From a virus: a stretch of 64,000 bases of DNA. The position numbers and the translations under genes were made by a program. The notes beneath the pieces are model-generated. The model was given only the letters and a program-made list of their open reading frames with translations. It did no database searches and was not told the DNA's origin. Shown here in pieces: positions 3,513-25,000 of the stretch. The number at the start of each line of letters is the position of its first letter. Position 1 is the first letter of the stretch. The stretch spans positions 16,206-80,205 of IMG/VR virus record IMGVR_UViG_3300025112_000005. One strand, written 5' to 3'.

Positions 3513-3526
3513 GGGAGGTTAAAGCC

Positions 3527-6128: not shown

Positions 6129-6173
6129 TGTTTCGGATCAACCGATCGGCGCTGAGGGAAGGGGGCGTGAGAA

Positions 6174-6500: not shown

Positions 6501-6522
6501 GTGGACGCGGGTGGTGAACTGA
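6479..6522 (+). repeat. 22-bp perfect tandem duplication at a gene junction
   Basis: GTGGACGCGGGTGGTGAACTGA twice (6479-6500, 6501-6522). Confidence 0.95.
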
Positions 6523-6734: not shown

Positions 6735-6907
6735 ACGCCCCGGGCGAACGGGCTGCCCTGAGTGCCGGACGGGTGTGCTGTGCGACGACGCACGGCGGAT
6801 GTTGCGCGAGCTGGTCGTAGAGGAGGCGGCGCTGGTCGAGCGGGGTCTGATGACGCCGTTTCGAGCGGGCCGGATCCCTGCGCGCCTGGAAGCGCTGGAG
6901 GGCGACG

Positions 6908-7348
6908 ATGCTGCGCGACTTGCTGACGATCTACACGACCCCGAACCCAGCGCTGGCGTCGGATCTGGCGCTGGAGCTGGTGGCGCGGTGGGAGGACTCG
7001 CTCGCGGGGCGGGTGCTGTGGCGCCTCTTGCACCCGGCGTTTCCGTCCGACGAACCAGACCCACGCGCCGTCGACCTGTTCGGGTGGGACCTGGGGACGA
7101 TGTGCCGTGATCCGTGGGCACGGTACTCGATGCGGTTGCACGACGCGGCGCACGTGGCGCTGGGGTACGCACCGACGCCGGAGGGCGAGGCGGAGCTGGC
7201 CGCGTATCTGCTGGCCAATGGCGTGTTTGACCCCGCTTACCTGGGCGTTCTCCCGTACGCTGTTCAGCACGGCGTGAGCCCGCGGCGAATGCTGCGCGCG
7301 GCGCGGCGCGGTTGGCGTGAGCCTAGTGTGATCGGGCGGGTGCTGTAG
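6908..7348 (+). CDS. Hypothetical protein
   Basis: GGAGGG RBS before ATG; GC3-rich codon pattern. Confidence 0.6.
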   Translation: MLRDLLTIYTTPNPALASDLALELVARWEDSLAGRVLWRLLHPAFPSDEPDPRAVDLFGWDLGTMCRDPWARYSMRLHDAAHVALGYAPTPEGEAELAAYLLANGVFDPAYLGVLPYAVQHGVSPRRMLRAARRGWREPSVIGRVL

Positions 7349-7351
7349 GAC

Positions 7352-7897
7352 TTGATCTACTTGCTGGAGTACCTGCTGGCGGGGCGCGTGGTCCGGCTGG
7401 GGAGGTTGGGCGTGTTCCGGTTCCAAGGAGGCCAGCTCCAGCGGCGTGCGCTGATTCTTAACCCGGACGCCGCGGGCGTGTGGGTCTCTGCGGAGACGCT
7501 CCCGATGGTGGCGTTCCTTCGAGCGCTGGAGACGCGGCGCCAGCCCGGGGGCGAGCCCGAGCAGCGCAGGCGGCGGGTGATCGTGGAGACGCCGTACAGG
7601 GGCGATGTGGCGCGGAACATGCGTTATCTGCGAGACGCGCAGCGTGATTGTATCGGGCGTGGAGAAGCCCCGTTTGCGAGCCACCGGATGTACACCGACG
7701 CGCTGGACGACGACGACCCCGTGGAACGCGACCTGGGCGTGGCGCTGGGGTTCGAGTGGGGGCTGGTGGCCCACGCCACGGTCGCGTACACGGACCTGGG
7801 CATCAGCACGGGCATGGGCTTGGGTATCGCGCACGCGAGGATGGCGGGGCGACCCGTGGAACTGCGTTCCTTGCCGGGCTGGGCGAGTGACGCGTAA
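7352..7897 (+). CDS. Phage protein with a C-terminal nucleoside-deoxyribosyltransferase-like (DUF4406/DUF7768-type) domain
   Basis: VIVETPYRGD...GEAPFASHRMY...DDDDPVERDLG...YTDLGISTGM motif. Confidence 0.7.
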   Translation: MIYLLEYLLAGRVVRLGRLGVFRFQGGQLQRRALILNPDAAGVWVSAETLPMVAFLRALETRRQPGGEPEQRRRRVIVETPYRGDVARNMRYLRDAQRDCIGRGEAPFASHRMYTDALDDDDPVERDLGVALGFEWGLVAHATVAYTDLGISTGMGLGIAHARMAGRPVELRSLPGWASDA

Positions 7898-7924
7898 CCT
7901 GGGTCGAATCGGCGGAGGACCAGC

Positions 7925-10900
7925 ATGTTGACGATGGCGAGCGTGGCGCGGTTGGCGAAGGCGAAGGGCAAGGACTACCGCGAGCGCGAAGCGGCGGGCC
8001 AAACGACCCTCTTCGGCGGCGGCGCCAGTGACGCGGACAGCGGTCACAGGCCCCGACGGCGTCGTCCCCGGGGGCCGGGCGCTGAGGCGGAACGCAATCA
8101 CGCACTTCGCTCGCAGCATCACCGGAAGAGGGCGGAGGATCACCAGCATCGACGCACGCCGGGGGCGCCGGGGGCGCAGGAGCACGCACAGGCGATCATG
8201 GCGCACAACAACGCGGCGGACGCACACAACGCGGCGCGGACGGCGCACGCGGAGGGCCGACCCGGGGCAGAAGCAGCCGCGGAGCGAGCGAACGACCGGA
8301 CACGAGACGCGGAAGCCGCATCTATCAGGGCGAGGAGCAAGGAAACCCCTCGCCACACGGGGCGCCACGGTGAGGAGGGGGGCCGAGGTAGTGGCCGGAT
8401 CCGCGACGCGCTGGACCCCGGCGGGCGAGCGCCTGCCCCGCGTGATCCGGTGTCTGACCACCAGATCGGACGCAGGGCCGCGCACCACGCAGACGCAGCA
8501 GCCGCACACCGCGCCGTGGCAGCAGGACGCCCGTCCGACGCGAAGCAACACCGCGCCGCGGCAGACGCGCACGAGAACGCGTCTGTGCTACATGCGGCAG
8601 GGCACGCCGACGCAGGCCGGGCGAGCGTTGAAGCGCTGGCGGCCAGCGATGCCGTTGCGGGTGGACGCGGTGCCACGAGCAGCGGCGATGATGCCCGGGA
8701 CCGGCGCGAGGGGGAGGCCCGCGGGCGCGTCGCCCAGGCGAAGGCGAAGCTGGACGCGGCGAAGAAGAAGGCCGGCGACAAGCCCCCGAGCGGCTACTAC
8801 CCCGCGAAGCGCTCCAAGAAGGGCGGCTTTACGGACGGCAAGGGCAACTACTGGTACCCCGGCAAGGGCGCGAAGCCCGCGGGGGCTCACGACGGCGAGC
8901 ACGGCAAGGACGCGGCGCTGGCGCACCACGACGAGCGCCGGGCGCACCACGACGAGATGGCGCTGGAGCACAAGAAGGCGGCGGCTGATCCCTACCGGAC
9001 GATGGAGAGCCGGGGGAAGCACGCGGACGCAGAGCGCAAGCACCACCACGCAGCGGTACACCACGGCGCGGCGCACGCAGACATCCGCGCGGGGCGCGTG
9101 GAGCCGAGCGACCCCAAGAGACACGACACCCTGGCGGGGACCACATCCGAGTGGGCCGACGACCACGACCGGGCGCAGTGGAACGACGAAGATGCGCACC
9201 ACCACGACGAAGCGGCGCGGCACCGGGCGAAGGCGGCCGAGCTGGGCGGCCACGGGCCGGAGACCCGGGCGCATCTGAACGCGGCGGACGCGCACGAAGA
9301 GGCGCACCGGCACGGGCGGGGCAGCATCGACACCCGAGCCCGCGACGTGTTCAGCGAGCGGGCCAACAAGGCGGGGGAGAAGGCCACGGCCGCGAGCAAG
9401 GCGGCGCGCAAGAAGGCCACGAGCAAGCCCCATACGCGTCACTCGTTCAATGAGGCGTTGAAGGGGCGAGACCGCAAGGGGCGCGCGGAGCTGTGGCACG
9501 AAGTGCTGGAGGGCGCGGGACTGACGGGGAGCGACCAGCCCAACTGGAACAGCCTCGGCAGCATCGAGACGCTACGTGCGACCCTCGCCCGGCGCGAGGG
9601 CTGGGAGGAGGGCCGCAAGAAGATGGCGGCGCTGGACGCGGAGCTGAAGAAGCGCGGGATGTTGCCCCTCACCGACGACGAGATGATGGACCGCGAAGCA
9701 GCGCGCATGGACGCGGAGGGCGTGCCCCACCCGCGTGACGCCCTGGACGCGCACACGGCGTACAAGAAGACCAAGGGTGCACTGGGTACGGATCTGGTCG
9801 AGTACCTGGAGATGAACGCATACAAGGTGCCCCCCGGGGCGCACGACCTGACGTCGTTGACGGACAAGGAACTGCGCAAGCTCAAGGGGCAGGTGTGGAA
9901 CGCGCTGAACGCCCCTGGACACGGCCATGCGTCGGTTCGCACACGGCGGCAGGCGCGGAAGGCGGCGAGCGCCCTGAGCGCGGAGGCGGATCGGCGTCTC
10001 AACGAGGGACACAAGGACAAGGCGGATCGGCGCAAGACCGGCGGCTTCGGCTCCCAGGCCGAGGTAGACGCGGCGTTTGAGGGCGGCGACCCGATGGGGC
10101 TGGACCCCAACGCGGCGGCCAGTGCGTCCATGAAGCAGAAGCCCGGCGCGGTGAAGCAGGCTGCGGCGGCGAGCGTCAGCGCGCGGACGGAGAAGGACAC
10201 GCCGAAGCCGGGGAGCCACGCTGCATTGGTCGCGGCGGGGAAGGCGGCTCTGGAGCGTGCGGACCACCCGCAACACAAGGTGCCGAAGGCCCTGCTGAAC
10301 CGGGGCGGGCGCCTGGGACGTGAGCGGGGCATCAAGGAGGCGGCGGAGAGCTGGTACAAGCACCCGGGCCACAGCGGGATGCCGGCGCGGCACGAGGTGA
10401 TCAAGCAGGTGCAGAAGGACCGGCAGCGGTGGCACGAGGACGGCGGTGGCAAGGGGTCGAGTAAGGTCGCGGACTTGGCGCCGAGCTACCTGCACGAGTA
10501 CGCGAAGCACGCGGCGTCTCAGTACGGGGACACGCCGCAGGCGGCCCCCGACCCCCAGGAACACGGGCTGTCGGGTGGGGAGGCGGCGGATCTGGTCAGC
10601 CGCTTCACGAAGCTCATGGGCACGCCCGAGGAGCCCACGAGCTGGTCCGGCGACCACGGAGGTGCGCAGATGCCCGCTGAGCACGGGCACGGCGAGGACT
10701 TCCACAGGCGGCTGATGACCGAGGCGCGCACAAACGCGGCGTCGTCCCGTTCGGGTATCCACAACAGCGCCCACCTGCACCGCATCGTCCAGCAGGCGGA
10801 CCAGCACGTGGCCGACTTCGCGGAGAGCAAGAGCAGTCACCGTAGCGGCGGTGCTGTGGCGACGTACCACCCCGACGAAGAGCAGCACTGGGGCACGGCG

Positions 10901-11020
10901 ATGGCTGCGCTCCAGAACGCGCACGGCGATACGCACCGCTTCGAGGCGAAGCGCCGCAAGACGGACAACCAGATGGTGATTCGGGCTCACCGGAAGTCGG
11001 GGAAGAGCCCAAAAGCGTAG
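7925..11020 (+). CDS. Giant His/Ala-rich mosaic head-cargo protein 1
   Basis: GGAGGA RBS; N-terminal RLAKA; YREREAAGQTTLFG and PPSGYYPAKRSKKGGFTDGKGNYWYPG modules shared with other head-region giants; AH..AA.AH repeats. Confidence 0.8.
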   Translation: MLTMASVARLAKAKGKDYREREAAGQTTLFGGGASDADSGHRPRRRRPRGPGAEAERNHALRSQHHRKRAEDHQHRRTPGAPGAQEHAQAIMAHNNAADAHNAARTAHAEGRPGAEAAAERANDRTRDAEAASIRARSKETPRHTGRHGEEGGRGSGRIRDALDPGGRAPAPRDPVSDHQIGRRAAHHADAAAAHRAVAAGRPSDAKQHRAAADAHENASVLHAAGHADAGRASVEALAASDAVAGGRGATSSGDDARDRREGEARGRVAQAKAKLDAAKKKAGDKPPSGYYPAKRSKKGGFTDGKGNYWYPGKGAKPAGAHDGEHGKDAALAHHDERRAHHDEMALEHKKAAADPYRTMESRGKHADAERKHHHAAVHHGAAHADIRAGRVEPSDPKRHDTLAGTTSEWADDHDRAQWNDEDAHHHDEAARHRAKAAELGGHGPETRAHLNAADAHEEAHRHGRGSIDTRARDVFSERANKAGEKATAASKAARKKATSKPHTRHSFNEALKGRDRKGRAELWHEVLEGAGLTGSDQPNWNSLGSIETLRATLARREGWEEGRKKMAALDAELKKRGMLPLTDDEMMDREAARMDAEGVPHPRDALDAHTAYKKTKGALGTDLVEYLEMNAYKVPPGAHDLTSLTDKELRKLKGQVWNALNAPGHGHASVRTRRQARKAASALSAEADRRLNEGHKDKADRRKTGGFGSQAEVDAAFEGGDPMGLDPNAAASASMKQKPGAVKQAAAASVSARTEKDTPKPGSHAALVAAGKAALERADHPQHKVPKALLNRGGRLGRERGIKEAAESWYKHPGHSGMPARHEVIKQVQKDRQRWHEDGGGKGSSKVADLAPSYLHEYAKHAASQYGDTPQAAPDPQEHGLSGGEAADLVSRFTKLMGTPEEPTSWSGDHGGAQMPAEHGHGEDFHRRLMTEARTNAASSRSGIHNSAHLHRIVQQADQHVADFAESKSSHRSGGAVATYHPDEEQHWGTAMAALQNAHGDTHRFEAKRRKTDNQMVIRAHRKSGKSPKA

Positions 11021-11052
11021 CCCCGGCGAGCACCGGGGACCACGTCGAGACC

Positions 11053-11409
11053 GTGCAGGCGGCATTCAAGGCGCACCGGGTCAACCGTTCGCAGGCGTCG
11101 CGTCTCCTCGCGTTCTTGCACGGAGAGGCCAGCATCGGCGAGGGCGAAGGGGACGCGACTGTGCGCGCGTTGAAAAGCCGCGGGCTGATTGAGAACACGG
11201 CATGGAGACAGGAGCCGGGGGAGTACGGCTACCAGCACGCACAGCTCACGGCCAAGGGGCGCGAGCTGGCGCGCGCGTTGGCCCACGCAGGCGTTTCGGA
11301 TGCGGGCGCGGCTGAGCTGTTGAGCGCGCGAGTAGTGCAGGGACGCCCCGCACCTCCGACACGCCGCTGGCGCGAGGGGCTGGAGAAAGACAGAAAGCGG
11401 AAGCCATGA
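11053..11409 (+). CDS. Hypothetical protein, possible winged helix
   Basis: TVRALKSRGLIE...QLTAKGRELA resembles a wHTH wing. Confidence 0.5.
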   Translation: MQAAFKAHRVNRSQASRLLAFLHGEASIGEGEGDATVRALKSRGLIENTAWRQEPGEYGYQHAQLTAKGRELARALAHAGVSDAGAAELLSARVVQGRPAPPTRRWREGLEKDRKRKP

Positions 11410-11633
11410 GCGACGACGGTGAGCACAAGACGGTCAGCATGAAACTGGCGATGTCCGTCCTGACCACGCTACTGGCGGTCATTGGCGGGCTGACCACGGT
11501 CACGCTGGACAAGGCCACCCAGGCGGCCGAGGCCCGCGCGGAGAACGCCGTGATGACCACCCAGGTGAAGGCGTGCGGTGACGTAATGTCCCGCTCGGAG
11601 AAGCTGCTGGCGGCATTGGAGGCGAGCCGATGA
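11406..11633 (+). CDS. Small membrane protein
   Basis: Hydrophobic LAMSVLTTLLAVIGGLTTV; ATGA overlaps. Confidence 0.65.
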   Translation: MSDDGEHKTVSMKLAMSVLTTLLAVIGGLTTVTLDKATQAAEARAENAVMTTQVKACGDVMSRSEKLLAALEASR

Positions 11634-11875
11634 ACACCCCGATCATTTTGGTGGCGGCGGCGGCGTTGACTGCGCTCGTGTTCCTGGCCGCCCCTGACGG
11701 CGCGGTGCCCGATGCAGGCAAAGACGCCGGCAAGGACGCAGGCGCCCCTGTGGCGGACGCGCACGCCCCAGCGCCCCCGACACCCCCCGAGGCGGTGCAG
11801 AAGGCGGCTGAGGAGCTACGCAAGGCGATGGAAGAGGCCAAGATGCAGATGCAGAAGGCCGGGCCGAAGCGCTAG
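11630..11875 (+). CDS. Small signal-anchored protein with DAG repeats
   Basis: N-terminal hydrophobic segment then PDAGKDAGKDAG. Confidence 0.65.
   Translation: MNTPIILVAAAALTALVFLAAPDGAVPDAGKDAGKDAGAPVADAHAPAPPTPPEAVQKAAEELRKAMEEAKMQMQKAGPKR
11821..11858. repeat. 38-nt inverted repeat, copy 2 (partner at 5971-6008)
   Basis: CAAGGCGATGGAAGAGGCCAAGATGCAGATGCAGAAGG. Confidence 0.95.
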
Positions 11876-12150
11876 ACTCCCGAGCACCCCGGGCGCAGAA
11901 CGTCGACCAGGAGCAGCACCCGACGTGAGCAGGGGTGATCCGGGTCGGCGCGTGCGGCGGCTTCCACGCCGTCGAGGTACCAGCACTGGACGGGGTACCC
12001 AGCGCGCGCCATCCTACGCAGCCCCGCGGCGACTTGCCGTAAATCGAACCCTTGAGCGTTGCCCGTGCCCATGCGCAGAGCGTACCCCTCGCGTGACCCA
12101 TTCGCCGAGTGGCTGGCGATGTCTACATGCTCGTTTGACCATGTAGACAT
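11872..12150 (-). CDS. Possible lone antisense small protein (92 aa)
   Basis: MSTWSNEHVDIASHSANG...PGCSGV fills the only large gap between + genes and converges on the 11630 gene. Confidence 0.4.
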   Translation of the reverse strand: MSTWSNEHVDIASHSANGSREGYALRMGTGNAQGFDLRQVAAGLRRMARAGYPVQCWYLDGVEAAARADPDHPCSRRVLLLVDVLRPGCSGV

Positions 12151-12193
12151 TTCCCGCCACCCTCGTGGGGCTGCGTGCTCGTGCGCCCCGGCG

Positions 12194-12222
12194 CCCGTGG
12201 TTCGATTCCACGGGCTGGCTCC
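12194..12222 (+). other. tRNA T-arm-like hairpin / 3' tRNA fragment
   Basis: CCCGTGGTTCGATTCCACGGG: canonical T-loop in a 7-bp stem; no matching 5' acceptor strand found. Confidence 0.4.
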
Positions 12223-12411
12223 TCCGCTTAGTTCGGAGCTGCCCCCGTCCCGGGGTACCGGAGGCGGGGAACGCGGGCACGCAGCGTCAACACCTTGACC
12301 ATGTAGCGGCAACCGGGCAGGATCAGGCCCTGCCGGCTTTATCCGCTCGCGCGAGCCCGCGTCAATCAACGGACGCTGGTAGGGTGGGCGGCTCAACCAC
12401 CGGAGGCTTAT

Positions 12412-12690
12412 ATGCCCGTCCGACACCTGAAGATCCGCAACTCCAAGCTCTACGGCACCCGCGTGTTCAACGTGGATGCCGAAGGTCGTGTGACCGCGGA
12501 GGACGGGAGCAACCCGACCCCCGTGGAGGCGGCGCGGTTCGCCACGATGGCCAATTACCACGTGACCCCCGACGACGCGGATGCGGCGGTAGAGCCGCAC
12601 GCGACCAAGGCGCCCGAGCCCGAGCCCCCGAAGGCGAAGGCGAAAGACGCCCAGGCGCGTCCCCCGCGGCGGCGCAAGCGCAGCAAGTGA
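12412..12690 (+). CDS. Hypothetical protein upstream of TerL
   Basis: GGAGG RBS; GTGA overlap with TerL. Confidence 0.75.
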   Translation: MPVRHLKIRNSKLYGTRVFNVDAEGRVTAEDGSNPTPVEAARFATMANYHVTPDDADAAVEPHATKAPEPEPPKAKAKDAQARPPRRRKRSK

Positions 12691-14408
12691 GCATCGCGGC
12701 TCAGCTCCTCGCGACCCCCGAGGGGCGCCGAGGGCTGGCCGCGGGGTCCCCCGCTTTCTTCGACACGCTTTATTGCGGGATGCGGCAGGCGGCGCACCGA
12801 CGGCGCTGGCTGGACGTGGTCGAAGAGACGATGGTCACCGCGCGGCGGACCCGTCGGAAGGGGCGGCTGCTGCTGTTGGCCCCGCGTGACCACGGCAAGA
12901 CCGAGCTGGCGATCAGCCTTGCGCTGCGGCAGGTGTGTTTGAACCGCGACGTGCGGATCTTGTGGATCAGCGAAGCGGCGGGCGTGGCAGAGAAGCGCGT
13001 GCGGCGCCTACGGTCGTTGCTTACGTCGGACAAGGTCGCGGAGGATTGGTGCAGCGCCCCGGAGGCGGGGCTGGGACCTTTCCGAGCGAACGACGAGAAA
13101 TGGACAAACACCCAGCTCTACGTCACCCGCAAGCTGGCCAGCGTGGACCCCACGATCGAGGCGGTCGGCAGCGGCGGCGCAATCACGGGCGGTCACTTTG
13201 ATCTGATTCTGTGCGACGACCTGGAAGACGACCGGACGACGTACACGGAGGGCCAGCGCGAGAAGACGCGCACGTGGTGGGCGGGCACCGTGCTTCCAAT
13301 GCTCAACCGCGGCGGAACGCTGGCGGTGATCGGGACGCGCAAGCACGCCGACGACCTATATGCCCGGCTGCGGAAGTCGCCATTGTGGCGCGTGATCGAG
13401 GACCCCGCGATCCTGAAGTGGCCCGACGCGCACGAGGTTGAGACGGAGCCCGACCCGAAGACCGGGCAGGAGCTTGTCACCCGGATCCGCGTCGAGGGCG
13501 ATTCTGAAGTGCTGTGGCCCGAGGAGCGCCCCATCGAGTACCTGCTGGGCGAGCGCTACGGCATGGGCTCGCTGTTCTTCGCCCGCGAGTTTCAGCACCA
13601 AGTGCAGGACGACAGCGCGGCGGCGTTCAAGTGGGAGTGGTTGGAGCTGGCGAAGAAGCGCGGGCGCGGGCTGCACCTGGGCCAGCTCCCGCCCGTGGAG
13701 GACCTTCTGCTGGTGCAGGGCTGGGACCTTGCGCTGGTGACCGACGAGGATCGAGCGCGCGCCCAGGACAGCGACTACGTGGTGGGCATCGGCTGGGGCA
13801 AGGACCCGAAGACGGGTGACCGCTACCTCGTGAGCGGGCTACGCAAGCGCGGCATGTCCCCCGGGCGCATCCGGGGCGAGGTCATGGGCGAATTCGAGGC
13901 GCTGGGCGGGCTGCGCAAGGTGCGTGCGGTTGGCGTCGAGCGGAACGCGTTCGGGGAGCTGCACTACATGGGGCTCAAGCGGACGACGGACCTACCGATC
14001 AAGCCCCACATGACGACGGGGCCGAAGAAGGCCGACCCGTGGGAGGGCGTGCCCGCGCTGGCCACGCTCTTCGAGAACGGAAAGGTGGTGCTGCCCTACC
14101 ACCCCGACGACCCCGAGGGGCGGGCGTTCGTGGACGTGCTGTGCGCGGAGCTGTGGGGGCTGGGGCGCGAGGCGCACGACGACACCGTCATGGCGCTGTG
14201 GATCGCGGAGTGCGTGCTGCGCGGCGCCGGCTTCCAATACCGCGTGGCGACGGGCGACGCGATCCACGAGATGGCGGGGACCGTGTACGACGAGCCCCCG
14301 ATCAAGGCAGACGACAGGCGGTCCCAAGAGCTGTGGGACGGCATCGCGGGGATGTTCCCCGGAGCGGATTTCGGAGACGATGATGACGACGACGAAGCTG
14401 ATCCGTAA
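12687..14408 (+). CDS. terL: Terminase large subunit
   Basis: Walker A LAPRDHGKT, Walker B ILCDD, coupling motif VIGTR, nuclease QGWDLA...ERNAF...HDDTVMA. Confidence 0.95.
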   Translation: MSIAAQLLATPEGRRGLAAGSPAFFDTLYCGMRQAAHRRRWLDVVEETMVTARRTRRKGRLLLLAPRDHGKTELAISLALRQVCLNRDVRILWISEAAGVAEKRVRRLRSLLTSDKVAEDWCSAPEAGLGPFRANDEKWTNTQLYVTRKLASVDPTIEAVGSGGAITGGHFDLILCDDLEDDRTTYTEGQREKTRTWWAGTVLPMLNRGGTLAVIGTRKHADDLYARLRKSPLWRVIEDPAILKWPDAHEVETEPDPKTGQELVTRIRVEGDSEVLWPEERPIEYLLGERYGMGSLFFAREFQHQVQDDSAAAFKWEWLELAKKRGRGLHLGQLPPVEDLLLVQGWDLALVTDEDRARAQDSDYVVGIGWGKDPKTGDRYLVSGLRKRGMSPGRIRGEVMGEFEALGGLRKVRAVGVERNAFGELHYMGLKRTTDLPIKPHMTTGPKKADPWEGVPALATLFENGKVVLPYHPDDPEGRAFVDVLCAELWGLGREAHDDTVMALWIAECVLRGAGFQYRVATGDAIHEMAGTVYDEPPIKADDRRSQELWDGIAGMFPGADFGDDDDDDEADP

Positions 14409-14622
14409 CCGCGGGCTGGGGCCGACTCAACGCAAGGTGTTGGAGGCGCTGCGTTCCGAGGCGGTGTCATGGACCCGCGCGGAGCTGGAAGAGATCACGG
14501 GGTGTACGATCCCGCAAGTACGCAGCGCGCTGAACGGGCTGCTACGCCGGGAGCTGGTGGCGCGCGCTCGCGACGGCGACCACAAGACAGCCCCTTGGGT
14601 CTGGTGGGCGCTCAGCGAGTAG
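14380..14622 (+). CDS. Winged-helix DNA-binding protein
   Basis: WTRAELEEITGCTIPQVRSALNGLLRRELV. Confidence 0.7.
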   Translation: MMTTTKLIRNRGLGPTQRKVLEALRSEAVSWTRAELEEITGCTIPQVRSALNGLLRRELVARARDGDHKTAPWVWWALSE

Positions 14623-14631
14623 CCGTGTAGG

Positions 14632-17600
14632 ATGGGCGGCGGAATGCTGACCTATGCCGAGCTGATCAAGGCGCACGCGGCGACCTACCATGGCAAGGGG
14701 CGCCGTACGGGTGTGCCGGGGCACTACAGCTACGACTACGACGAGCCCGCGCGGCGGGGCAGTGGGCGCGGCCAGCGCAAGCGGGAGGCGCTGGAGGCGG
14801 CGGGCCAGCTCTCGTTGCTGGGTCCAATGCAGCCAAGCGCGGCGCCCCCCGCCGCCCGTGAGGAGCCGAAGCCCGAGCGCCCCCAGCTCGCGCACGACCA
14901 CCCCGCGGTGAGTGAGCCCAGCGCGCGCATCACCCGGTACGACCTGAAGCAAGCGGCTGGCGTGCGCGCCGAGCTGGCGAAGATCGCGGACGAGCTGGAG
15001 AAGCTGCCCAACGGCGCAGACTGGCGACATGGCCGAGCGCGCGAGCTGGTTCGCGAAGTGGGCCGCGCCAGCACAAACGTCTTGCGGTGGGCGATGAAGC
15101 TGGAGCTGTGGGACAAACCCGACCACGAGGGCGGGCTGGACGCATTGATGAGCGGGCTCAACCGCAGCAGCGTGCTGGAGGGCGGCCCCCAGGCGACCGC
15201 GCGGCGCCTTCGGCGCATTCACAGAAAGCTGGCCGCGTCGGCGAAGCGTGGGACTGAGGACGTGTCCCACGAGGAGCGGCTGGAGACGCAGCAGGTGGGC
15301 GCCGTCCAGCTACAGGTCAGCAGGCACGAGGCAACGCCGGAGATGGCCCGTTCGCTCGCTCACGATCTGCGCGAAGCGCAGGGGCGCATGAAGCGCGCGG
15401 GGTTCCACGAGGCGTACAAAGGCGGGCGGGTCACCCTCAAGAAGCACGCGCGGGAGCACGAGGCGCGATACATGCGAAACGGCCGGTCAGCGGACACGGT
15501 CGAGTGGAACACCAATTCGCTGGGTACGCTGGGGGAGCACGAGGAGACAGTGGCGTCCATCGTCCACGAATTCGGACACCGGCACTACTACCGCAACCTG
15601 CCCAGCCGCGCCGTTGAAGGGTGGGACGCCGAGTCTGCGCGCATGGTCAACGTGGCGCGCGAGGACGTGGACAAGCTGGCCGACTACACGGCGCGCTTCG
15701 CCAGCGACGCGCAGCGCGACGGGGCCACTTACAGCGAGAGGCTGGGGACGGAAAGCGCGTTCTCCGAACGGGTGCGTGCCCACATCACCAATGACCCTGA
15801 CCTGGACCCGGAGACCCGCGCGCTTTACACGGCGATGGTGGGGGTCGTGGGGGAAGACCTGGAAAGCAGGCTGACGACCACCTGGGCGCACCCCGGCGAC
15901 CGCCAGCACGGGCTTGACGATGTGCGGAAAGAGATGCGCGAGAAGCTGGTGGGTGCGCATGTGCCCGTTCACTGGACAACGCAGTACGGGAGCACCAAGC
16001 CAGAGGAGGCATACGCGGAGGCGTTCAAGCTCTACGTGATGCGAGGCCCCCGAGCCCTGGGTGAGCGCACCCGAAAGTTCTTCGAGCACATTAGCAGCCT
16101 GCGCAAGGCGCAAGGCGCGTTCTCAGCACCGCTGGACACCGTGATGGAGCACCGGAAACAGCTCCGCGCGGGGCGGTTGGTAGACGCGATGGATAAGGCG
16201 CTGGGGGTTTTCCGATGCAGGCGTGGCACGCCGAGGGGCTGGCGCTGCTTTGCGGATCTGGTGAAGGCATACACTGCGTATCGCGGGAAGGGCACGCGCC
16301 ACGGCTCCCCGGGGAGCTACACCTACACCTACGACGATGAGCCCAAGGCGAAGGCGAAGAAGAAGGGGCGCCACACGGTGCTCCCCACGTGGGACGCCCC
16401 CGAGCGCATCGACCTGACTCTGGTGGGGTGCAGCAAGTCGAAGGTGGACCACGACGACCCCGTGGCCGTGCGGGACCTGTACCGCAAAGACCTGTGGAAC
16501 AAGCGGCGGGGGTTCGCGGAGGCGCGCTCGCGCCACGGCACCCCCTGGGCGGTGGTCAGCGCCGGCTTGGGCATTGTGGACCCCGACACCCAGGCGACGC
16601 GCTACGACACCCAGGTAAAGGATTTGAAGGGCGACGCGCGGAGCGAGTGGGTGCGCAACACGCGCGAGAGCCTGCGGCAGAAGCTACCCCGCGGCGGGCG
16701 CCTGGAAGTGATCGCCGGGCGTGACTACGTGGCGATGCTGCGGGAGGCGGTCGAGGGGCTGGGCATCGAGCTGGTTAACCCGCTCAAGAGCGTGGGCACA
16801 GGCGACGGGAAGCACTGGCTGGCGGCGCAGACGGATCTGCTGAACAACAAGCCCGCGCCCCGGGAGCCTGAGCAGCTGCGCCCCGCGCAGCAGCAGCTCT
16901 CCCTGTTCGGCCCCGACGACTGGCCCAAGAAGCGCGCGGCGCCCACGCTCTCCGCGTACGCCGAACTGCGCCCCCTGCGAAAGAAGCACGCGGCGGCAGA
17001 GGGTGCGTGGAAGAGGGTGCTGGGGGCAGCGGAGCGGCTGCTGGTGGCGACGGACTACGCGGAGCCCCACACGGTCGAGACGACCCGAGGGACCTACAAG
17101 TACAAGGGGGGCACCCATCGACCCCCCCAGGCGAGCGGGGGGCGGCTGGCGCCCGAGGTGACCCACCAGTTTGCAGGCGTGCTCCCGCAGGGGCGGCTTA
17201 CGCCGGAGAAGCTACATGCGGGGAGGCTGGCGGCGGCGGAGACGATGGCGCGGACGATGAGCCTGGACGAGACCCCCGCGGGTGTTCCGCGCTGGTGGAA
17301 GGCCGAGCGGAAGAGGTTCGTGGACGCTGTGGCGGAGCTGCGCGGTGCGCGTGACACGTACACGTCGATCACGCGACTGTTCCCGGGGAAGCGCTTCGAG
17401 ACCCCGAAGGTAGGCCGCGCCCTGGAGAAGATGGCCCTGGAACGCCGAGGGCTGGAGCGCGAGGCGGACGAACTAGACATCCCCCTGCGGCGGTACTTCG
17501 CCAGCGGGTCCAACAACGCGGGGGAGATTCGCGGGTTTGCTGCGCTGGGCATGAACGTGGGCGTGGCGGTGGACCAGATCAACAGCGCGTCCCTGGAAGC

Positions 17601-18594
17601 GATCCGAGAGCTGCGTGGCAACGGAACCCAGGTGTTCGTGGACTCCGGCGCGTTCGGAGAGGTCAAGTTCAACGTGCCGAACAAGAAAGGCAAGCTGCCA
17701 AAGCCGGACCTGCCCATCGGCCCGTACACGGTGCGCCCCATCACACACGAGGACTGGACCACCCGACTGGCGCTCTACGACCGCATCGTGGACGCGGCGG
17801 GTGCCCAGGCGCACGTCGTCGCGCCGGACAAGATCGCCGACCAAGCGACGACGCTGGAGCGAATGCGGAAGTACGCGCCGGAGATGCAGGCGCTCCGCGA
17901 GAAGGGCGCCAACGTGCTCGCCCCGTTGCAGGGCGGCGGCGCTCTGACGCTGGCGCAGTTTGAGGACAAGGTGACCGAGGCGCTAGGCTTTGACGACTAC
18001 GTGCGGGCGATCCCGATGAAATCGAACGCCACGAGCCCCGAGGTCTTGGAGGCGTTTCTGGAGGAGCGACGCCCGAAGCGCATCCACCTGCTGGGCCTGG
18101 GGCCGAGCAGCGACGCGTTCCCCGCGATCAGGGAGATGATCCAGCGGGTCAGCCCCCATACGTCCGTTACGCTGGACAGCGTGGCAATCACGGCGGCCGT
18201 GGGTCGCCCCAAATCAAAGAAGACTGGGGAGCTGCTGGAGCCGCGCAAGCTGTCCCGGGCGACCGATTGGGTGAGACGAGAGATGAGCCCGCAATACGAC
18301 AGAGACGCCGATTACACGGACCTGATTGGCGCCCCGAGCGAGTGGATGCCGCTGGCCCAACAGCAGCGCGTTGCGCGCGACCTGGATGCGATGGGGCACG
18401 ACGGGGCTGCGTTCTTGCGCGACCCTGACGGGTGGCTCCAAGAGGACGAGGGGGACGGTGCCCCGCCGAACTACGAGCTGCCGGAGGTGGCGCACCTAAT
18501 GGATCAGGTGTGGGGCAACTGGTGGGAGGACCGGGACGAGCACACGGCGGCCGTCAAGCGCGCGGCCGTGATGGAAGCGTGGGCGGCATCGTGA
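14632..18594 (+). CDS. Giant polyvalent protein 2: zincin (HEFGH) + YaaA/DUF6884-like + TGT/DpdA-like transglycosylase fold
   Basis: HEFGH...YGSTKPEEAYAEAF; LVGCSKSK...DLY...VVSAGLG...YD; FVDSGAF, APD, LQG, IHLLG, LDS. Confidence 0.85.
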   Translation: MGGGMLTYAELIKAHAATYHGKGRRTGVPGHYSYDYDEPARRGSGRGQRKREALEAAGQLSLLGPMQPSAAPPAAREEPKPERPQLAHDHPAVSEPSARITRYDLKQAAGVRAELAKIADELEKLPNGADWRHGRARELVREVGRASTNVLRWAMKLELWDKPDHEGGLDALMSGLNRSSVLEGGPQATARRLRRIHRKLAASAKRGTEDVSHEERLETQQVGAVQLQVSRHEATPEMARSLAHDLREAQGRMKRAGFHEAYKGGRVTLKKHAREHEARYMRNGRSADTVEWNTNSLGTLGEHEETVASIVHEFGHRHYYRNLPSRAVEGWDAESARMVNVAREDVDKLADYTARFASDAQRDGATYSERLGTESAFSERVRAHITNDPDLDPETRALYTAMVGVVGEDLESRLTTTWAHPGDRQHGLDDVRKEMREKLVGAHVPVHWTTQYGSTKPEEAYAEAFKLYVMRGPRALGERTRKFFEHISSLRKAQGAFSAPLDTVMEHRKQLRAGRLVDAMDKALGVFRCRRGTPRGWRCFADLVKAYTAYRGKGTRHGSPGSYTYTYDDEPKAKAKKKGRHTVLPTWDAPERIDLTLVGCSKSKVDHDDPVAVRDLYRKDLWNKRRGFAEARSRHGTPWAVVSAGLGIVDPDTQATRYDTQVKDLKGDARSEWVRNTRESLRQKLPRGGRLEVIAGRDYVAMLREAVEGLGIELVNPLKSVGTGDGKHWLAAQTDLLNNKPAPREPEQLRPAQQQLSLFGPDDWPKKRAAPTLSAYAELRPLRKKHAAAEGAWKRVLGAAERLLVATDYAEPHTVETTRGTYKYKGGTHRPPQASGGRLAPEVTHQFAGVLPQGRLTPEKLHAGRLAAAETMARTMSLDETPAGVPRWWKAERKRFVDAVAELRGARDTYTSITRLFPGKRFETPKVGRALEKMALERRGLEREADELDIPLRRYFASGSNNAGEIRGFAALGMNVGVAVDQINSASLEAIRELRGNGTQVFVDSGAFGEVKFNVPNKKGKLPKPDLPIGPYTVRPITHEDWTTRLALYDRIVDAAGAQAHVVAPDKIADQATTLERMRKYAPEMQALREKGANVLAPLQGGGALTLAQFEDKVTEALGFDDYVRAIPMKSNATSPEVLEAFLEERRPKRIHLLGLGPSSDAFPAIREMIQRVSPHTSVTLDSVAITAAVGRPKSKKTGELLEPRKLSRATDWVRREMSPQYDRDADYTDLIGAPSEWMPLAQQQRVARDLDAMGHDGAAFLRDPDGWLQEDEGDGAPPNYELPEVAHLMDQVWGNWWEDRDEHTAAVKRAAVMEAWAAS

Positions 18595-19444: not shown

Positions 19445-19846
19445 GTGGCCACCCTACGCGGCGAAGTAACCGGATCCGCGAACGCCAACAACGCGGCGCG
19501 GCTGGCCACGATCTGGGGGGACGGGGTTCTTGTCTACGACACGGACGATGACCGGCTCTACGTCGGCGACGGGGAGACCGCAGGCGGTAATCCGCTCGCT
19601 GAGGGCGGGACTACGCCCATCCCCGGGCACCCGCATTTGTTTCAAGGAGATGGGGCCACGACCGTTTTCACGCTACCGTGGACCCCGTTGACGGCTTCGG
19701 CCCGTGTGTGCCGAAACGGCTTGCAGATCGAGCGAAGCCCGACGCCTGGGGATAAGGACGAATTCCTGATCGCCGGTAACAAAATCACTTTCGGGGCTCC
19801 CCCCGGTACGCTGGACCGTCTTTCGGTCTCGGCGTGGACCCGCTAG
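19445..19846 (+). CDS. Fibre-associated protein (Mtd/hyaluronidase N-terminal-like motif plus small beta domain)
   Basis: GVLVYDTDDDRLYVGDGETAGG; GDGATTVFTL...RNGL. Confidence 0.7.
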   Translation: MATLRGEVTGSANANNAARLATIWGDGVLVYDTDDDRLYVGDGETAGGNPLAEGGTTPIPGHPHLFQGDGATTVFTLPWTPLTASARVCRNGLQIERSPTPGDKDEFLIAGNKITFGAPPGTLDRLSVSAWTR

Positions 19847-19866
19847 AGCGAGAGGGAAAGCAGCAC

Positions 19867-21942
19867 ATGGCCATCAAGATCGCCAGCGACCAGATTCAGG
19901 ACAACGCCGTCCTGACTGCCGCGATCACCGACACCGCGGTCACCGCGGCGAAGCTCGCCAGCGGCGCCGCCGTCGCCAACGTCGGCACGGGCGGCATCAG
20001 CTCCACGGAGCTGGGGTCCGACTCCGTGACGCAGGCCAAGATGGCCGACGACTCAGTGGGCACCGCGGAGATGATCGACGCCAACGTGACCGCCGCCAAG
20101 CTGGCGTCGGGCGCTGCCGTGTCCAACATCGGCGCGGGTGGCATCACCAGCAACGAGATGGGCTCCACGGCCAAGAACAGCGCGCTCGCGTCGAAGGCGT
20201 GGATGGAGGAGGTGGTCAGCGCCGACGAGTCGAACCCGTCCGCGTCGTCCGTCGACATCAAAACTTCGCTGAGCTTCGGCACCACCACGGGAGTGGGCGG
20301 CGCCACCATCGGCGCCACCGCGGGCATCCCGGTGCTGATCGAAGAGACGGGTGGCGCCGACTCCGGCGACTGGAACAACACGGACTCCCGCCCCGCTGCC
20401 ATCGGCGGCGACGCGAAGCTCTACCGCTGCGAAGTCTTCAGCACCGCGGGTGAGGAGATCGTGGACGCGAACGAAAAGCGCGTCTGGGCGGTGATCACGT
20501 GTGACGGCACCCGCCTGACCACCGACGCCTACACCCTGCGCTTCATGTCCGGCGAGTACGGATCCGGCAACGAGGGGGCGTACACGATGGCACAAGCGTT
20601 CTTCATCGTGTACCCCCAGGTGACCGACCTGTCGAACATGACCCTGGGCTCCAACCGCCTGGGCATCGTCTCGATCAGCAAGGAAGCCGCGGGCATCGCC
20701 ACCGGCCAGATCGGGACGGGGGAGCTGGCCCTCGACGCCGTGACCCAGGCGAAGATGGCCGACGACTCAGTGGGCACCGCGGAGATCCTGAACGCGAACG
20801 TGACCGCCGCCAAGCTGGCGTCGGGCGCGGCCGTCTCCAACATCGGCGCGGGTGGCATCACCAGCAACGAGCTGGGCACGGGCTCAGTGATCGCGGGCAA
20901 GATCGCGACGGGCGGCGTTTCGGCGGCGGCTCAGCTCGCCGCAAACGTGGTCGAGACCGCGAAGATCCTCGACGCCAACGTCACGGCGGCGAAGCTCGCC
21001 AGCGGCGCGGCCGTCTCCAACGTCGGCGCGGGCGGCATCACTAGCAACGAGCTGGCCACGGGTTCGGTGATCGCGGGCAAGATCGCGACGGGTGGCGTTT
21101 CGGCCGCGGCTCAGCTCGCCGCAAACGTGGTCGAGACCGCGAAGATCCTCGACGCCAACGTCACGGCGGCGAAGCTCGCCAGCGGCGCGGCCGTCTCCAA
21201 CGTCGGCGCGGGCGGCATCACCAGCAACGAGCTGGCCGCGGGTTCGGTGACCGAGGCGAAGATGGGCAGCTTGCTGCTGTCCCAGATCCGCAACACCGAG
21301 TCGGTTGGCCCGCTGGAGACCAAGCTCGGTGGCATTCTAGGCAGCGGCGCGGCGTCCCTCGCCGCGGAGACTGCGCTGGCCGTCTCCGAGAAGGCCGCGC
21401 CGGACATGAGCGTGGACGTGGCCGCGGGCACGTCGTTCAACGAGAACGGCGACCGCTTCGTGCTGACCACCCTCCAGAACGTCTCGGTGAGCGCGGCGCC
21501 CACGGCCGGCAACAGCCGGTACGACGTGGTGGTCATGTACGGTGACGAGCTGGTTACGATCCGTGCGGGCACCCCCGCCGCCACGGGCTCGCACACCGAG
21601 CCGACCCTGACCACGGGCGACGTGAAGCTGGCCGTGGTCGACGTGGAGAACGGCGACACGACGATCGTGGATGCCAACATCTACGACCACCGTCGTCGTG
21701 CCAACTGCACCCGCGTGGCGGAGAAGTTCGCCCCGTCGGGCTCGGACGTGACACTGGCTTTCCGCACCCGCCGCGGCGACCCCCAGGTCTTCCGCAACGG
21801 TCTGCGCGGTGAGCAGGTCGCGGCGGCTGCGACCGATGCTGACCAGTACACCGTCGACCAGCTCCCCGAGCAGGACGCGACCATGATCACGTTCGGCGCG
21901 TCGGTCAGCGGGGACACCATCCTCGTGGACTACGAGGGCTGA
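19867..21942 (+). CDS. Repetitive head/collar fibre protein
   Basis: Repeated VTAAKLASGAAVSNxGAGGITSNEL units; C-terminal RYDVVV and FRNGL motifs. Confidence 0.8.
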   Translation: MAIKIASDQIQDNAVLTAAITDTAVTAAKLASGAAVANVGTGGISSTELGSDSVTQAKMADDSVGTAEMIDANVTAAKLASGAAVSNIGAGGITSNEMGSTAKNSALASKAWMEEVVSADESNPSASSVDIKTSLSFGTTTGVGGATIGATAGIPVLIEETGGADSGDWNNTDSRPAAIGGDAKLYRCEVFSTAGEEIVDANEKRVWAVITCDGTRLTTDAYTLRFMSGEYGSGNEGAYTMAQAFFIVYPQVTDLSNMTLGSNRLGIVSISKEAAGIATGQIGTGELALDAVTQAKMADDSVGTAEILNANVTAAKLASGAAVSNIGAGGITSNELGTGSVIAGKIATGGVSAAAQLAANVVETAKILDANVTAAKLASGAAVSNVGAGGITSNELATGSVIAGKIATGGVSAAAQLAANVVETAKILDANVTAAKLASGAAVSNVGAGGITSNELAAGSVTEAKMGSLLLSQIRNTESVGPLETKLGGILGSGAASLAAETALAVSEKAAPDMSVDVAAGTSFNENGDRFVLTTLQNVSVSAAPTAGNSRYDVVVMYGDELVTIRAGTPAATGSHTEPTLTTGDVKLAVVDVENGDTTIVDANIYDHRRRANCTRVAEKFAPSGSDVTLAFRTRRGDPQVFRNGLRGEQVAAAATDADQYTVDQLPEQDATMITFGASVSGDTILVDYEG
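20800..21250 (+). repeat. 180-bp (60-aa) tandem repeats in the fibre gene
   Basis: Near-identical 180-bp units starting near 20810, 20990 and 21170. Confidence 0.9.
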
Positions 21943-22002: not shown

Positions 22003-25000
22003 ATGAGTGGTGGCCGTGTCTATCGCGAGCGGGAGGCGGAGGGGCAGCTCGGCTTGTTTGGCCAGATGGTCCAGCAGGCGAAGCAGAAGAAGCCCCCCGC
22101 GCCCCGACCCCCCTCCCCCAAGCCGTCGGCCCCCCGCCCCCCTGCGGGCTACCACCCTGCGCCCCGGAGCCGTAAGAGCGGCTGGACGGACGGGCACGGG
22201 CACTACTGGTACGCGACCGGGCAGCACAACCACGCGAGCGGCGGCGAGGAGCACCCCGAAGCCGAGGAGATGGAGAACGACCGGGCGATCGACCTGCACG
22301 ACGACCAGATCCACGAGGAGCTGAACAACGGGCGTAGCTCGCAGCTCCGGCGCCGGAAGCTGAACCGGGAGAAGCGCCTACGCGCGAGCGCCGAGGAGCG
22401 CAGGCAGGCGGCGGAGAAGCCGAAGATCGGGCGCGTCGAGCACCCGAAGCCCGAGGAGCCCAAGCGCGGACGCGACGAGCTGGTGGAGGATGTGGACGTT
22501 CAGTCCTACCCACACAAGCGCGGAGCAAAGCACTATGTGCGCGGAGCGTCGCGAGATGCGGTGCTGGTGAGGCTCCGCGAGATGGGGGCTTCGGAGGGTC
22601 AAATCGAGTGGGGGCGGGAGGGCACACGGGAAGGGGCGTACCTGGGGCGGTACGTAGGAGAGTGGAACGAGCTGACGCCGAAGCCCGAGGAGCCCAAGCG
22701 CGGACGCGACGAGCTGGTGGAGACGGCCGAGGAGCCCCAGCCCGAGCCCCCCGAGGCGCCCGGTGAGCCCCCGCCCCAGGTAGAGCCGCCCGAGCCCGAG
22801 AAGGAGGGCGAGAGCGGGTGGGAGGAGTGGCGAAAGAAGCACCCGGAGCACACCGACGCGGAGCGGTTCCACCGAGCTGAAGCACAGCGCACCGGCAGCG
22901 CCACGCACGAACAGGCGGCGCACGCTCACCAGACGGCCCGCCGAATCGGGGGCTACCACAAGGCCCGCGCGTGGGACATGTCCCGGCTGGCGTTCGACGA
23001 GAAGCCGAAGCCGCTGGTGGAGGAGCCGCCCGAGCCGGAGGCGCCCAAGGCCGAAGACGCGGACCTGACGCACGCAAAGCAGCTCATGCGAGACCACATG
23101 ACGCGTGCCGAGGAGTACCGGAAGCACGACGGCGCCGAGGAGGTTGTGCGCGCGCACAGCGCGGCGGCTGTGCTCTGGTCGCGCGTCGCCATCGGGGATG
23201 CCGACCGCGGCGATGCCATCGACGCGACCGCGGCGGCAGGCAAGGCGGAGCTGGCGTACACGGCTACCCCCCCCGCGGGGCCGGTGGAACCCCCTCGCGA
23301 GGAACCACCGGCCCCGCTCCCCCCGCCCAAAGGTATGCCCTTGCCTGATCCCTATCGTATCCGCACGGCGGGGGAGTATGCCCGGCTCCCTGTTGGGAGT
23401 GTGGTGGAGAAGAAGGGGGGCGGCGTGTATGTGAAGACGCCCCAGGGGGGATGGGTGCATCAGCACCCAGACACCGGCCTGCACGACAGCGGCGGCGGTC
23501 CGGGGGGTGAAACGAAGGTGCTCGACGAAAAAGAGGGGTTGCTCTCGCTCGTATCTCACGCCCAGGTGTTGCCCGATGTGGTTCATATCCCGGTGCCGGG
23601 GAAGACGTCTGAAGACGCCCACCGGGTGGGCGCGTTCCTGTTGAGCGAGGAGGGTCGCGAGGCGCTGGCCTCTCGCGGCGTTCGTGCCTCTGGCATGTCG
23701 CTTGGTCCCGGCAATTCAATGATCTTCGTACACCGGACCCACGAAAAGCGCCCCGCCGACCCCCCCAGCGGTGTCGACACGCACGCGGGCGCGGTCAAGG
23801 CCGCGCGCTACGCGGACGGCGCGTTGCGCATCCCGATTCCGGCGCACGAGGGGGGGGCGAAGGCGGGCGCGAAGGCGCTGGGGATGTGGCTGATGGGGGC
23901 GGAGGGGCGCGCGGCGTTGGTGGCGCAAGCCGACCAGCTCGACGTGGTGCCCAACCTGCGCAAGATCCGCATCCAGAACGGGGAGATGGCGATCCTCGCG
24001 CGCCCGCTCACGGAGGCGGAGCTGAAGCAGCGGCGCGACGCGGCCAAGAAGCGCACACGGGGGCCGACGACGGGGGGCGGCGCGGCCCGCGGCATCGACC
24101 GGACGCGCGAGGCGGCGCTGGCCGCCCGCGGGCAGGACGGCAAGACCGTGGCCGCCCAGGTCGAGAAGGATGAGCGTGATTGGGGCGAGAAGATCGGCGG
24201 TGCGGCAAAGGACCGCTGGGACGCCGTGCACAGCCGCAACCTGGGCGCGATGGAAGAGGAGGAGGGCGCGGAGTTCGCCCACAAGCACGTGACCAAGGCG
24301 CGCGTGCTGGGCTCCCATGACCCCGAGCACGACAAGGCGCTGGGGTCGACCCCGGGCGCGAGCCTCATCAAGCGCGAGCTGTTCAAGAAGGTGGCCCCGC
24401 GGCCCGAGAACAGCCCCGGGCACCGGAGCAACTACGTCGCCGGCTGCGATTGGCTGGCGAAGATGATGGACGTGCTGCACCACGAGGACGATGTGGCGTC
24501 GTTCTTGGAGGACTGGAAGACCGTCGCGGTTGAGGGGACCGAGCGGGACGTAGACGCGAAGACGTTCGCGGATCTGCGCGAGACGCTGGGCATTGTTCTT
24601 TGGAATAGGATGCACGTCATAGACCATCACGCCGCCCCCGGTCGCTGGAGGAAGTTTAGCGCGCAGGGCCAATGGTGGGCGCTGCCTGCTACGGAGGCCC
24701 CCGGGGGCAGCTTCAAAGTGCTGCACCACGAAGGCGAATTTACGCCGCGCGAACAGGCGGAGTGGTTGGTTGCCGAGCCCAAGCGCCGGGACGAGCTGCG
24801 CGCGCTGAAGAAATCGCGCGGGTCGTGGGCGCTCCATCGTCGGACGCAGGACACGGAGCGGCTACAGCGGTACGCACGGGCGTTGGGCGGGTCGTTCAAC
24901 ACCCAGCTCACCAACAGCACATCGGGAAACAAGGATTCGGCGCTGTGGGTGCGGGTGAAGCAGGCACGGGCGGGTAGCACGGCTTGGGAGGATCTGGGCG

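Follow-up and report, generated by a model that had tools for sequence, protein, structure and literature searches.

A zinc-less TGT/DpdA-like domain fused to DUF6884 in a phage polyvalent protein: a candidate DNA base-exchange enzyme

Modification of DNA with 7-deazaguanines is an established anti-restriction strategy, and the known insertases (bDpdA and DpdA1-4) were discovered through their linkage to genes for preQ0. Here we analyze a window of 64,000 nucleotides (nt), the bases 16206-80205 of the 80,205-bp IMG/VR virus record IMGVR_UViG_3300025112_000005 (completeness by CheckV estimate, 100%; GC content, ~68%), and within it an open reading frame (ORF) at 14632-18594 on the plus strand that encodes a protein of 1320 amino acids (aa). 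An earlier sequence-only reading of this DNA had proposed that the C-terminal part of the protein carries the catalytic motifs of tRNA-guanine transglycosylase (TGT) and DpdA. Our analysis suggests, at about even odds (a probability of roughly 0.5), that residues 952-1320 form a catalytically intact, zinc-less branch of the TGT/DpdA superfamily, which would perform a DpdA-like base exchange on DNA with host precursors and with a fused DUF6884 domain as its finishing enzyme.

The active site of bDpdA consists of D95 (acid/base), F99, D130, H181, L236 and D256 (nucleophile); the three aspartates are invariant across DpdA and TGT, and the substitutions D95A and D256A abolish exchange (PMC10164549). 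Within the same system, DpdC converts preQ0-DNA to ADG-DNA and resembles DUF328 (PMC5699537; PMC10164549). Phages with DpdA as their only pathway gene number 76 and may use host preQ0, and one of these DpdA-only phages, 7-11, carries dADG (PMC6884629). A 2026 preprint joins a divergent branch, TIM-B, to the superfamily and predicts that TIM-B is a regulator (bioRxiv 10.64898/2026.10.19.760177).

All five motifs named by the sequence-only reading are present in the order it gave, at positions that differ by 3-6 nt from those it reported (FVDSGAF at 17635 instead of 17641, IHLLG at 18082 instead of 18085, and LDS at 18172 instead of 18175). The features of the C-terminal domain are as follows.

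17485..18591, plus strand: TGT/DpdA-like barrel (aa 952-1185) with a hairpin/helical C-terminal extension (aa 1186-1320), from AlphaFold2 (AF2), VIA-align, Foldseek and hhalign
17635, plus strand: FVDSGAF, aa 1002-1008
17821, plus strand: APD, aa 1064
17926, plus strand: LQG, aa 1099
18082, plus strand: IHLLG, aa 1151
18172, plus strand: LDS, aa 1181

For comparisons within the family we number the domain by the last 381 residues of the protein, to which 939 is added to obtain the full-protein numbering. In an alignment of the domain with 39 homologues (40 sequences), the invariant columns are F63, D65, G67, A68, A125, P126, D127, Q161, H213, L215, G216, G218 and D243, and the residues D65, D127, D243, F69 and L215 are invariant or at least 90% conserved. 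Since they fall in columns that are invariant or nearly so across 40 sequences, the motifs are more than chance occurrences; that they correspond to TGT/DpdA catalytic motifs agrees both with these invariant or near-invariant columns and with their pairing with the profile of the DpdA1 of phage 9g.

The AF2 model built on the family alignment (predicted local distance difference test, pLDDT, 91.2; predicted TM-score, pTM, 0.82) consists of eight beta/alpha units, after which come a hairpin and helices. Comparison with TGT and DpdA had been proposed as a check, and the fold predicted is that of a TIM barrel, with DpdA as the solved structure closest to it and ArcTGT and TGT next. Specifically, a VIA-align search of 48,161 representative chains, which is independent of Foldseek, ranks DpdA 7ui4 first (Z 15.0, root-mean-square deviation (rmsd) 3.1 over 183 aa, 17% identity), then ArcTGT 1iq8 and bacterial TGT 3unt (both Z 13.1), with unrelated barrels from Z 12.2 (class II aldolases); QTRT2 and Cap10 (complex 9ntn, Z 11.0) are also among the matches. 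The best Foldseek matches are bacterial TGT, with E ~1e-6 and low TM-scores. The alignment with 7ui4 ends at residue 246, short of the extension after beta8, the place that in DpdA is taken by Ins8, a hairpin plus helices positioning the polynucleotide. In the model, DSSP assigns to this extension one short helix, bridges that resemble a hairpin, where G252, R266 and T269 are almost invariant, and, at 267-379, helices.

Because the structural margin is moderate, we sought support at the sequence level. When the family was aligned by hhalign with the phage 9g DpdA1 profile, the match extended over 145 columns with E 2.9e-5 and paired D65 with D72, D127 with D114, Q161 with H141, H213 with H196 and D243 with D215. 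The motifs stay in register from beta3 to beta8, that is, across six strands: FVDSGAF with FLDSGAF, APD with LDG, LQG with FHA, IHLLGLG with KVHGFGI, and LDS with CDS. The corresponding hhalign comparison of the family with the single E. coli Tgt sequence is not significant (probability 0.5%), though the DSG motif is aligned. The numbering is not chained by sequence to that of bDpdA because the 9g DpdA1 profile misses 7ui4 by HMMER; in the AF2 model, the conserved Asp, Phe and Leu sit at the ends of beta3, beta4, beta8 and beta7. By way of the 9g DpdA1 profile, the predicted catalytic residues are D1004, F1008, D1066, Q1100, H1152, L1154 and D1182. Judged by these residues the domain appears catalytically intact, and it is predicted to be active.

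The family to which the domain belongs is large. When the last 381 residues are used to search 1.84 billion representatives with HMMER, 897 clusters match at E<=1e-3, of which 307 reach E<=1e-30. Some members are free-standing proteins of ~350 aa, and others form part of larger ones, the longest being 4,271 aa. A tblastn search of 50,697 phage records with the domain gives no match, sequence searches of the PDB (single sequence and profile) give noise only, and NCBIfam has no match to it; two other family members have faint DUF6610 matches (E 0.0065 and 0.0094). We classify the domain as a zinc-less branch of the TGT/DpdA superfamily that is new, large and uncatalogued and belongs to none of the named DpdA subfamilies. 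Stand-alone members occur in seven Acidobacteriaceae loci (L009, L012, L014, L016, L024, L025 and L030) as part of a conserved prophage block, together with an AEP(-TOTE) primase, a PLD-like nuclease, a DUF6094 methyltransferase and a recombinase of the Rad52 type. A PAPS-reductase-like protein is also among the conserved neighbors in acidobacterial prophages.

Upstream of the barrel, the sequence-only reading had placed a YaaA/DUF6884-like domain and a QLSLF motif, both of which are borne out:

16417..16824, plus strand: DUF6884 domain, YaaA/DUF328-like fold (aa 596-731), from Pfam and an AF2 model
16894..16908, plus strand: QLSLF (aa 755), sliding-clamp-binding consensus, in the linker past DUF6884; a sequence motif

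The Pfam match to DUF6884 (PF21818) spans aa 596-731 with E 2.1e-23 and 83.4 bits against a cut-off of 30. Its CxxxK motif is present as CSKSK at aa 600 and its LSAxxG-type motif as VSAGLG at aa 642; these motifs were defined in a study that links DUF6884 and YaaA to DNA-lesion recognition (PMC11701544). The best-ranked AF2 model of the domain has a pLDDT of 85 and the other four only 50-56. YaaA is its top structural match (5caj, Z 8.4, rmsd 3.6, 142/161 aa), followed by 2q07 (AF0587) at Z 8.2 and then by a match at 6.4, so that the one confident model of five predicts the YaaA-like "cantaloupe" alpha/beta fold. The second match is itself informative: STSV2_16, a homologue of ArcS-C1, matches PDB 2q07 (AF0587, "unknown function") with E 3.6e-8 across PC-x3-KPY, and 2q07 is for that reason an ArcS-C1-type structure. 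ArcS acts on preQ0 in tRNA. The modelled DUF6884 would share the fold of two families that act on preQ0 within a polynucleotide, DpdC (DUF328) and ArcS C1, and this kinship is one of fold only: BLASTP of DUF6884 against STSV2_16 gives nothing. A word-based search for stand-alone relatives of this DUF6884 copy gives none, and searches of the literature on AF0587, and on DpdC in combination with YaaA, yielded nothing of use. In Sulfolobus virus STSV2 (L086:14485-15895), the genes for DpdA (STSV2_15) and ArcS-C1 (STSV2_16) lie side by side. Fusion of DUF6884 with the barrel occurs in 5 of the 150 top homologues, in both orders.

The QLSLF at aa 755 lies in a linker between DUF6884 and the middle region of the protein and fits the sliding-clamp consensus QL[SD]LF. 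Such motifs are frequent in the family: Q[LV]xL[FW] occurs 26 times in 150 homologues versus 1.6 +/- 1.1 in shuffles (~17-fold), placed at the C-termini of stand-alone proteins or right before the barrel in fusions, and a relaxed motif lies within the last 14 residues of 13 of 94 stand-alone members versus 0.7 +/- 0.8 in random windows. This enrichment favors a DNA-directed, replisome-linked role with predicted clamp binding. Canonical DpdA1 proteins also end in a conserved ..QELF (L314 and F315 invariant), and the DpdA gene of phage 9g (L035:3007-3960, minus strand) is directly beside the phage's own replicative clamp gene; the QELF of characterized DpdA1 may be a clamp-binding motif.

With respect to precursor supply, the sequence-only reading saw no folE, queD, queE or queC in the window and proposed a search of the rest of the genome for preQ0 genes. 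Its observation stands and extends to the whole genome: hidden Markov models (HMMs) for QueC, FolE, PTPS/QueD, Radical_SAM and TGT match nothing anywhere in the 80,205-bp record, the window included, and a tblastn search of it with the proteins of the 9g pathway is likewise empty. One member of the family elsewhere (in L071) does have such a link. It scores 290 bits against the family HMM, has all motifs, the beta6 loop PCKKAATS and a His in place of Q161, and branches from within the family tree. Next to it lie QueC (E 8e-30), a radical SAM gene of the QueE type and a gene of the Mom family. At least one branch of the family is very probably a 7-deazaguanine insertase, and as this member shares the PCKKAATS loop, the odd beta6 loop of the family is compatible with 7-deazaguanines. 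The interval L071:9956-14466, on a 70-kb viral contig, can be described as a DNA-modification island made up of the TGT-like member, the QueE-like gene, QueC, two small unknown ORFs and Mom.

Overall, the clamp-like motifs, the fused DpdC/ArcS-like domain and the one QueC/QueE-linked relative favor DNA as the substrate and a 7-deazaguanine as the base. We regard it as probable that the domain breaks or exchanges a glycosidic bond in nucleic acid; DNA as the substrate is a little better than an even bet, and 7-deazaguanine as the base is a tentative assignment that falls somewhat short of one. Whether the domain would act on phage DNA with host precursors, on host DNA or on tRNA, the alternatives that the sequence-only reading had raised, is a choice that sequence cannot make.

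Several points weigh against this reading. The lead of DpdA over generic TIM barrels is only ~3 Z units, which is moderate; the hhalign probability against 9g DpdA1 is 74%; and the catalytic residues are predictions that come from that profile. The Pfam models PF01702 (TGT), PF23859 (DpdA), PF20314 (DUF6610) and PF14350 (Beta_protein) do not match the domain, the last three even at E<=10. This lack of a curated-HMM match is weak evidence, because genuine relatives of 9g DpdA1 are likewise without a precomputed Pfam match. DpdA and TGT share a conserved CxCx2Cx22H zinc site, which is absent from the 381-aa domain, a sequence with no cysteine at all. The beta6 loop of the domain is IPMKSNATS (PMK[KS]xAT[ST] in the family, with P189 invariant) rather than the Gly-rich loop for the 7-substituent (G206/G207 in bDpdA). 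Of the 46 viral records that contain a family member, only 2 have a QueC match (for the 15 near-complete records, likewise 2), and que genes lie within 10 kb of a family member in none of 33 bacterial loci. The QueC-linked L071 member is far in the tree from the clade of the 1320-aa ORF. Phage Orion, which has DpdA only, is without modification (PMC6884629).

Some of the same observations would also fit a different base. With its Asp nucleophile and acid/base chemistry retained, the domain could be a glycosylase that acts on DNA, or it could exchange a base that is not a 7-deazaguanine, and thereby remove host-type marks, damage host DNA or install an unknown base. The family-specific PMK[KS]xAT[ST] in place of the loop that selects the 7-substituent would fit such an enzyme, as would the absence of QueC from 44 of the 46 viral records and from the present phage, the replication, recombination and nuclease genes (rather than base-synthesis genes) that neighbor the acidobacterial prophage members, and the tie of DUF6884/YaaA to DNA-lesion recognition (PMC11701544). 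However, the L071 member linked to QueC and QueE has the same loop type, and phages with DpdA alone are common (PMC6884629). All told we consider this alternative unlikely. For a glycosylase in particular, no TGT-fold enzyme is known to be a plain hydrolase.

Less likely again is a target other than DNA, whether tRNA (as for TGT), a protein (as for Cap10 on CD-NTases) or a soluble nucleobase product (as in the TIM-B proposal), by which the protein would manipulate host translation or immunity. The superfamily does act on tRNA and on proteins, the Cap10 complex 9ntn is matched at Z 11.0, TIM-B is a predicted regulator (bioRxiv 10.64898/2026.10.19.760177), and an Atlas look-alike cluster has been automatically named "T4 beta protein family". 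Yet the best structural match is DpdA, PF14350 and PF01702 give no match, and no PUA or other RNA-binding domain was found, whereas the clamp-binding-like motifs and the fused DNA-lesion-type domain point to DNA, and the other polyvalent proteins of the genome carry SNF2 and ParB-superfamily domains, which belong to DNA-acting families. That the barrel is catalytically dead or performs unrelated TIM-barrel chemistry (e.g., aldolase-like), with a structural or packaging role and convergent TGT motifs, would accord with the many middling TIM-barrel matches (class II aldolases at Z 12.2) and the lack of HMM membership in known families, but is very improbable given that the proposed catalytic positions are invariant over 40 diverse homologues (stand-alone ones included), that the top three structural matches are one superfamily and that the profile alignment preserves the register of the motifs across six strands. 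The latter two grounds also led us to reject a plain TIM barrel of the aldolase type.

The TGT/DpdA-like barrel and its DUF6884 partner occupy the second half of a composite protein. Besides the domains given above, the ORF contains the following features.

14632..18594, plus strand: whole ORF, a polyvalent protein of two tagged units fused, from the ORF list and homologue alignment
14647..14745, plus strand: tag copy 1 (aa 6-38; ..Y.GKG.R.G.PG.Y.Y.Y..EP), 52% identical to the N-terminus of P0003
14806..14820, plus strand: QLSLL (aa 59), clamp-binding-like, in the linker of unit 1; a sequence motif
15565..15579, plus strand: HEFGH, a zincin-type motif of unit 1, read from sequence only, without a Pfam match
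16249..16356, plus strand: tag copy 2 (aa 540-575), the start of unit 2, where P0003 begins, from alignment
16924..17466, plus strand: middle region (aa 765-945), common to the close homologue P0003 only

Two units are joined head to tail in the ORF, a fusion that the sequence-only reading did not note. The second unit (aa 540-1320) exists separately elsewhere as P0003, a 791-aa protein from another source with 69% identity over aa 540-1318 of the ORF. The ~180-aa middle region between QLSLF and the barrel has detectable relatives only in P0003. One giant homologue, P0109, has five copies of the tag and another, P0063, has two. The tag may serve as a signal for packaging or processing, and its recurrence supports a modular, possibly processed cargo. 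Within the window, a G.Y.Y.Y-type tag after L[AIV]KA is found at four places in three giant ORFs (28130, 36046, 14719 and 16312, all on the plus strand), and two of these copies (...LAKA...KYIRRVPKPGGGYRY[YF]Y) head modules of the PAPS-reductase-like and ddrB-ParB giants.

The ORF is flanked by the large terminase (TerL) on one side and by a tail-fibre-like ORF, a giant with LPD1 and the portal on the other, in a neighborhood that is a myovirus morphogenesis block:

12165-14408: large terminase TerL
19834-21942: tail-fibre-like ORF
22003-26178: giant with LPD1
26175-27914: portal
27914-38961 together: giants, PAPS-reductase-like, SNF2/DarB-like and ddrB-ParB
Downstream of the giants: MuF-like protein, head protease, major capsid protein and tail sheath

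For the ten largest ORFs of the record bases 1-16205, upstream of the window, there are no Pfam matches at E<=0.001. The setting matches that described for polyvalent proteins, in whose description no TGT-like, TIM-barrel or YaaA-like domain is mentioned by these words (PMC5512222). One ORF combines a zincin motif, DUF6884 and a TGT-like barrel, and its neighbors include TerL, portal, MuF-like, protease and capsid genes; unrelated enzymatic domains thus share one chain near portal, MuF and terminase, as is characteristic of polyvalent proteins. From the position of the gene (between TerL and portal, among polyvalent proteins) and the repeated N-terminal tag we infer that delivery with the virion, which the sequence-only reading had also suggested, is plausible.

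A PAPS-reductase-family (PP-loop) protein (window 27914-30388) accompanies the TGT-like family in the phage of the 1320-aa ORF, and the same co-occurrence is seen in six bacterial or prophage loci (L003, L009, L014, L016, L023 and L024), ~5-6 kb downstream of the family member. QueC is a PP-loop enzyme too, and a functional link between the PAPS-reductase-like protein and the TGT-like family is conceivable.

If the domain is a DpdA-like transglycosylase, D1182 at the end of beta8 would act as the nucleophile at C1' and D1004 (beta3) as the general acid/base. Guanine would be swapped for a 7-deazaguanine precursor, most plausibly preQ0 or preQ1 made by the host, since the phage encodes no synthesis genes, and the fused DUF6884 could convert the inserted base afterwards. 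Through QLSLF in the linker, the unit may be anchored at the host sliding clamp, and modification would then follow replication. Unit 2 would then be an independent tagged module behind a zincin-bearing unit, and virion delivery would be plausible because the gene sits in the head-morphogenesis block among polyvalent proteins. The fullest version of this scheme, in which unit 2 is a self-contained, clamp-tethered, virion-delivered two-enzyme cassette for DNA hypermodification that uses host precursors only or installs a base new to DNA, is doubtful; its new-base option is kept because the beta6 loop is family-specific.

The known insertases came to light through preQ0 genes, and the zinc-less branch described here is large, unannotated and mostly without preQ0 linkage, residing in giant multi-enzyme phage proteins and in prophage replication modules. 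If its members are active, more phages would be expected to carry modified guanines, or a new base, and such enzymes could come pre-fused to a finishing enzyme and a replisome tether. A function would also be assigned to part of DUF6884. On the fullest version of the scheme, the ~900-cluster family would be a sixth, widespread lineage of the DpdA type, and the frequent QLxLF ends would suggest that clamp coupling is common among DNA transglycosylases. The domains would also be compact candidate enzymes for site-directed DNA base exchange.

Compared with described systems, the best structural match is bDpdA of Salmonella Montevideo (7ui4), the DNA guanine/preQ0 transglycosylase of the Dpd system. 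Both are TIM barrels in which beta3, beta4 and beta8 each end in an Asp, with an aromatic residue at +4 from the first of these and a Leu in the strand of the HLxG motif, and both are without the N-terminal beta-lid of TGT, which is absent here because the barrel starts straight at beta1. The present barrel differs from bDpdA in having no zinc site, Gln for His at the base-reading position and PMK[KS]xAT[ST] for Gly-Gly; it has no Pfam DpdA/TGT match, no dpdB-K cluster and no preQ0 genes, its C-terminal extension is unaligned to Ins8, and it is embedded in a polyvalent phage protein. A domain with the DpdC/ArcS fold is fused to it in cis, and a ParB-superfamily domain lies in a neighboring giant.

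The closest relative by sequence profile is the DpdA1 of Enterobacteria phage 9g (gp03), which has the near-identical motif FLDSGAFS and a similarly small size, and is also missed by Pfam TGT (precomputed) and by PDB sequence search. In contrast to the present protein, it is encoded in a folE-queD-gat-queC-queE operon, whose genes the phage studied here lacks, and the two differ by an identity below 20%, by His versus Gln as the base reader and by a GG-type versus a PMK beta6 loop. DpdA4/DUF6610 (Halovirus HVTV-1 gp69) and TIM-B/PF14350 (phage P4 beta) are likewise divergent branches of the superfamily that are recognized only by HHpred or structure, but neither model matches the protein here at E<=10, and TIM-B is found in host defense operons rather than phage cargo.

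The likeness of DUF6884 to DpdC and ArcS C1 comes with no detectable sequence similarity to the STSV2 ArcS-C1, a modest Z and a chemistry that is predicted; nevertheless, its C-x3-K after beta1 resembles the PC-x3-KPY of ArcS C1, and its pairing with a DpdA-type enzyme mirrors dpdA-dpdC and STSV2_15-STSV2_16. Finally, the protein as a whole resembles the polyvalent proteins of phages and conjugative elements (Iyer et al. 2017, PMC5512222), both in being a long multi-domain protein near TerL, portal and MuF and in the company it keeps of LPD1-, SNF2/DarB-like-, ddrB-ParB- and PAPS-reductase-bearing giants.

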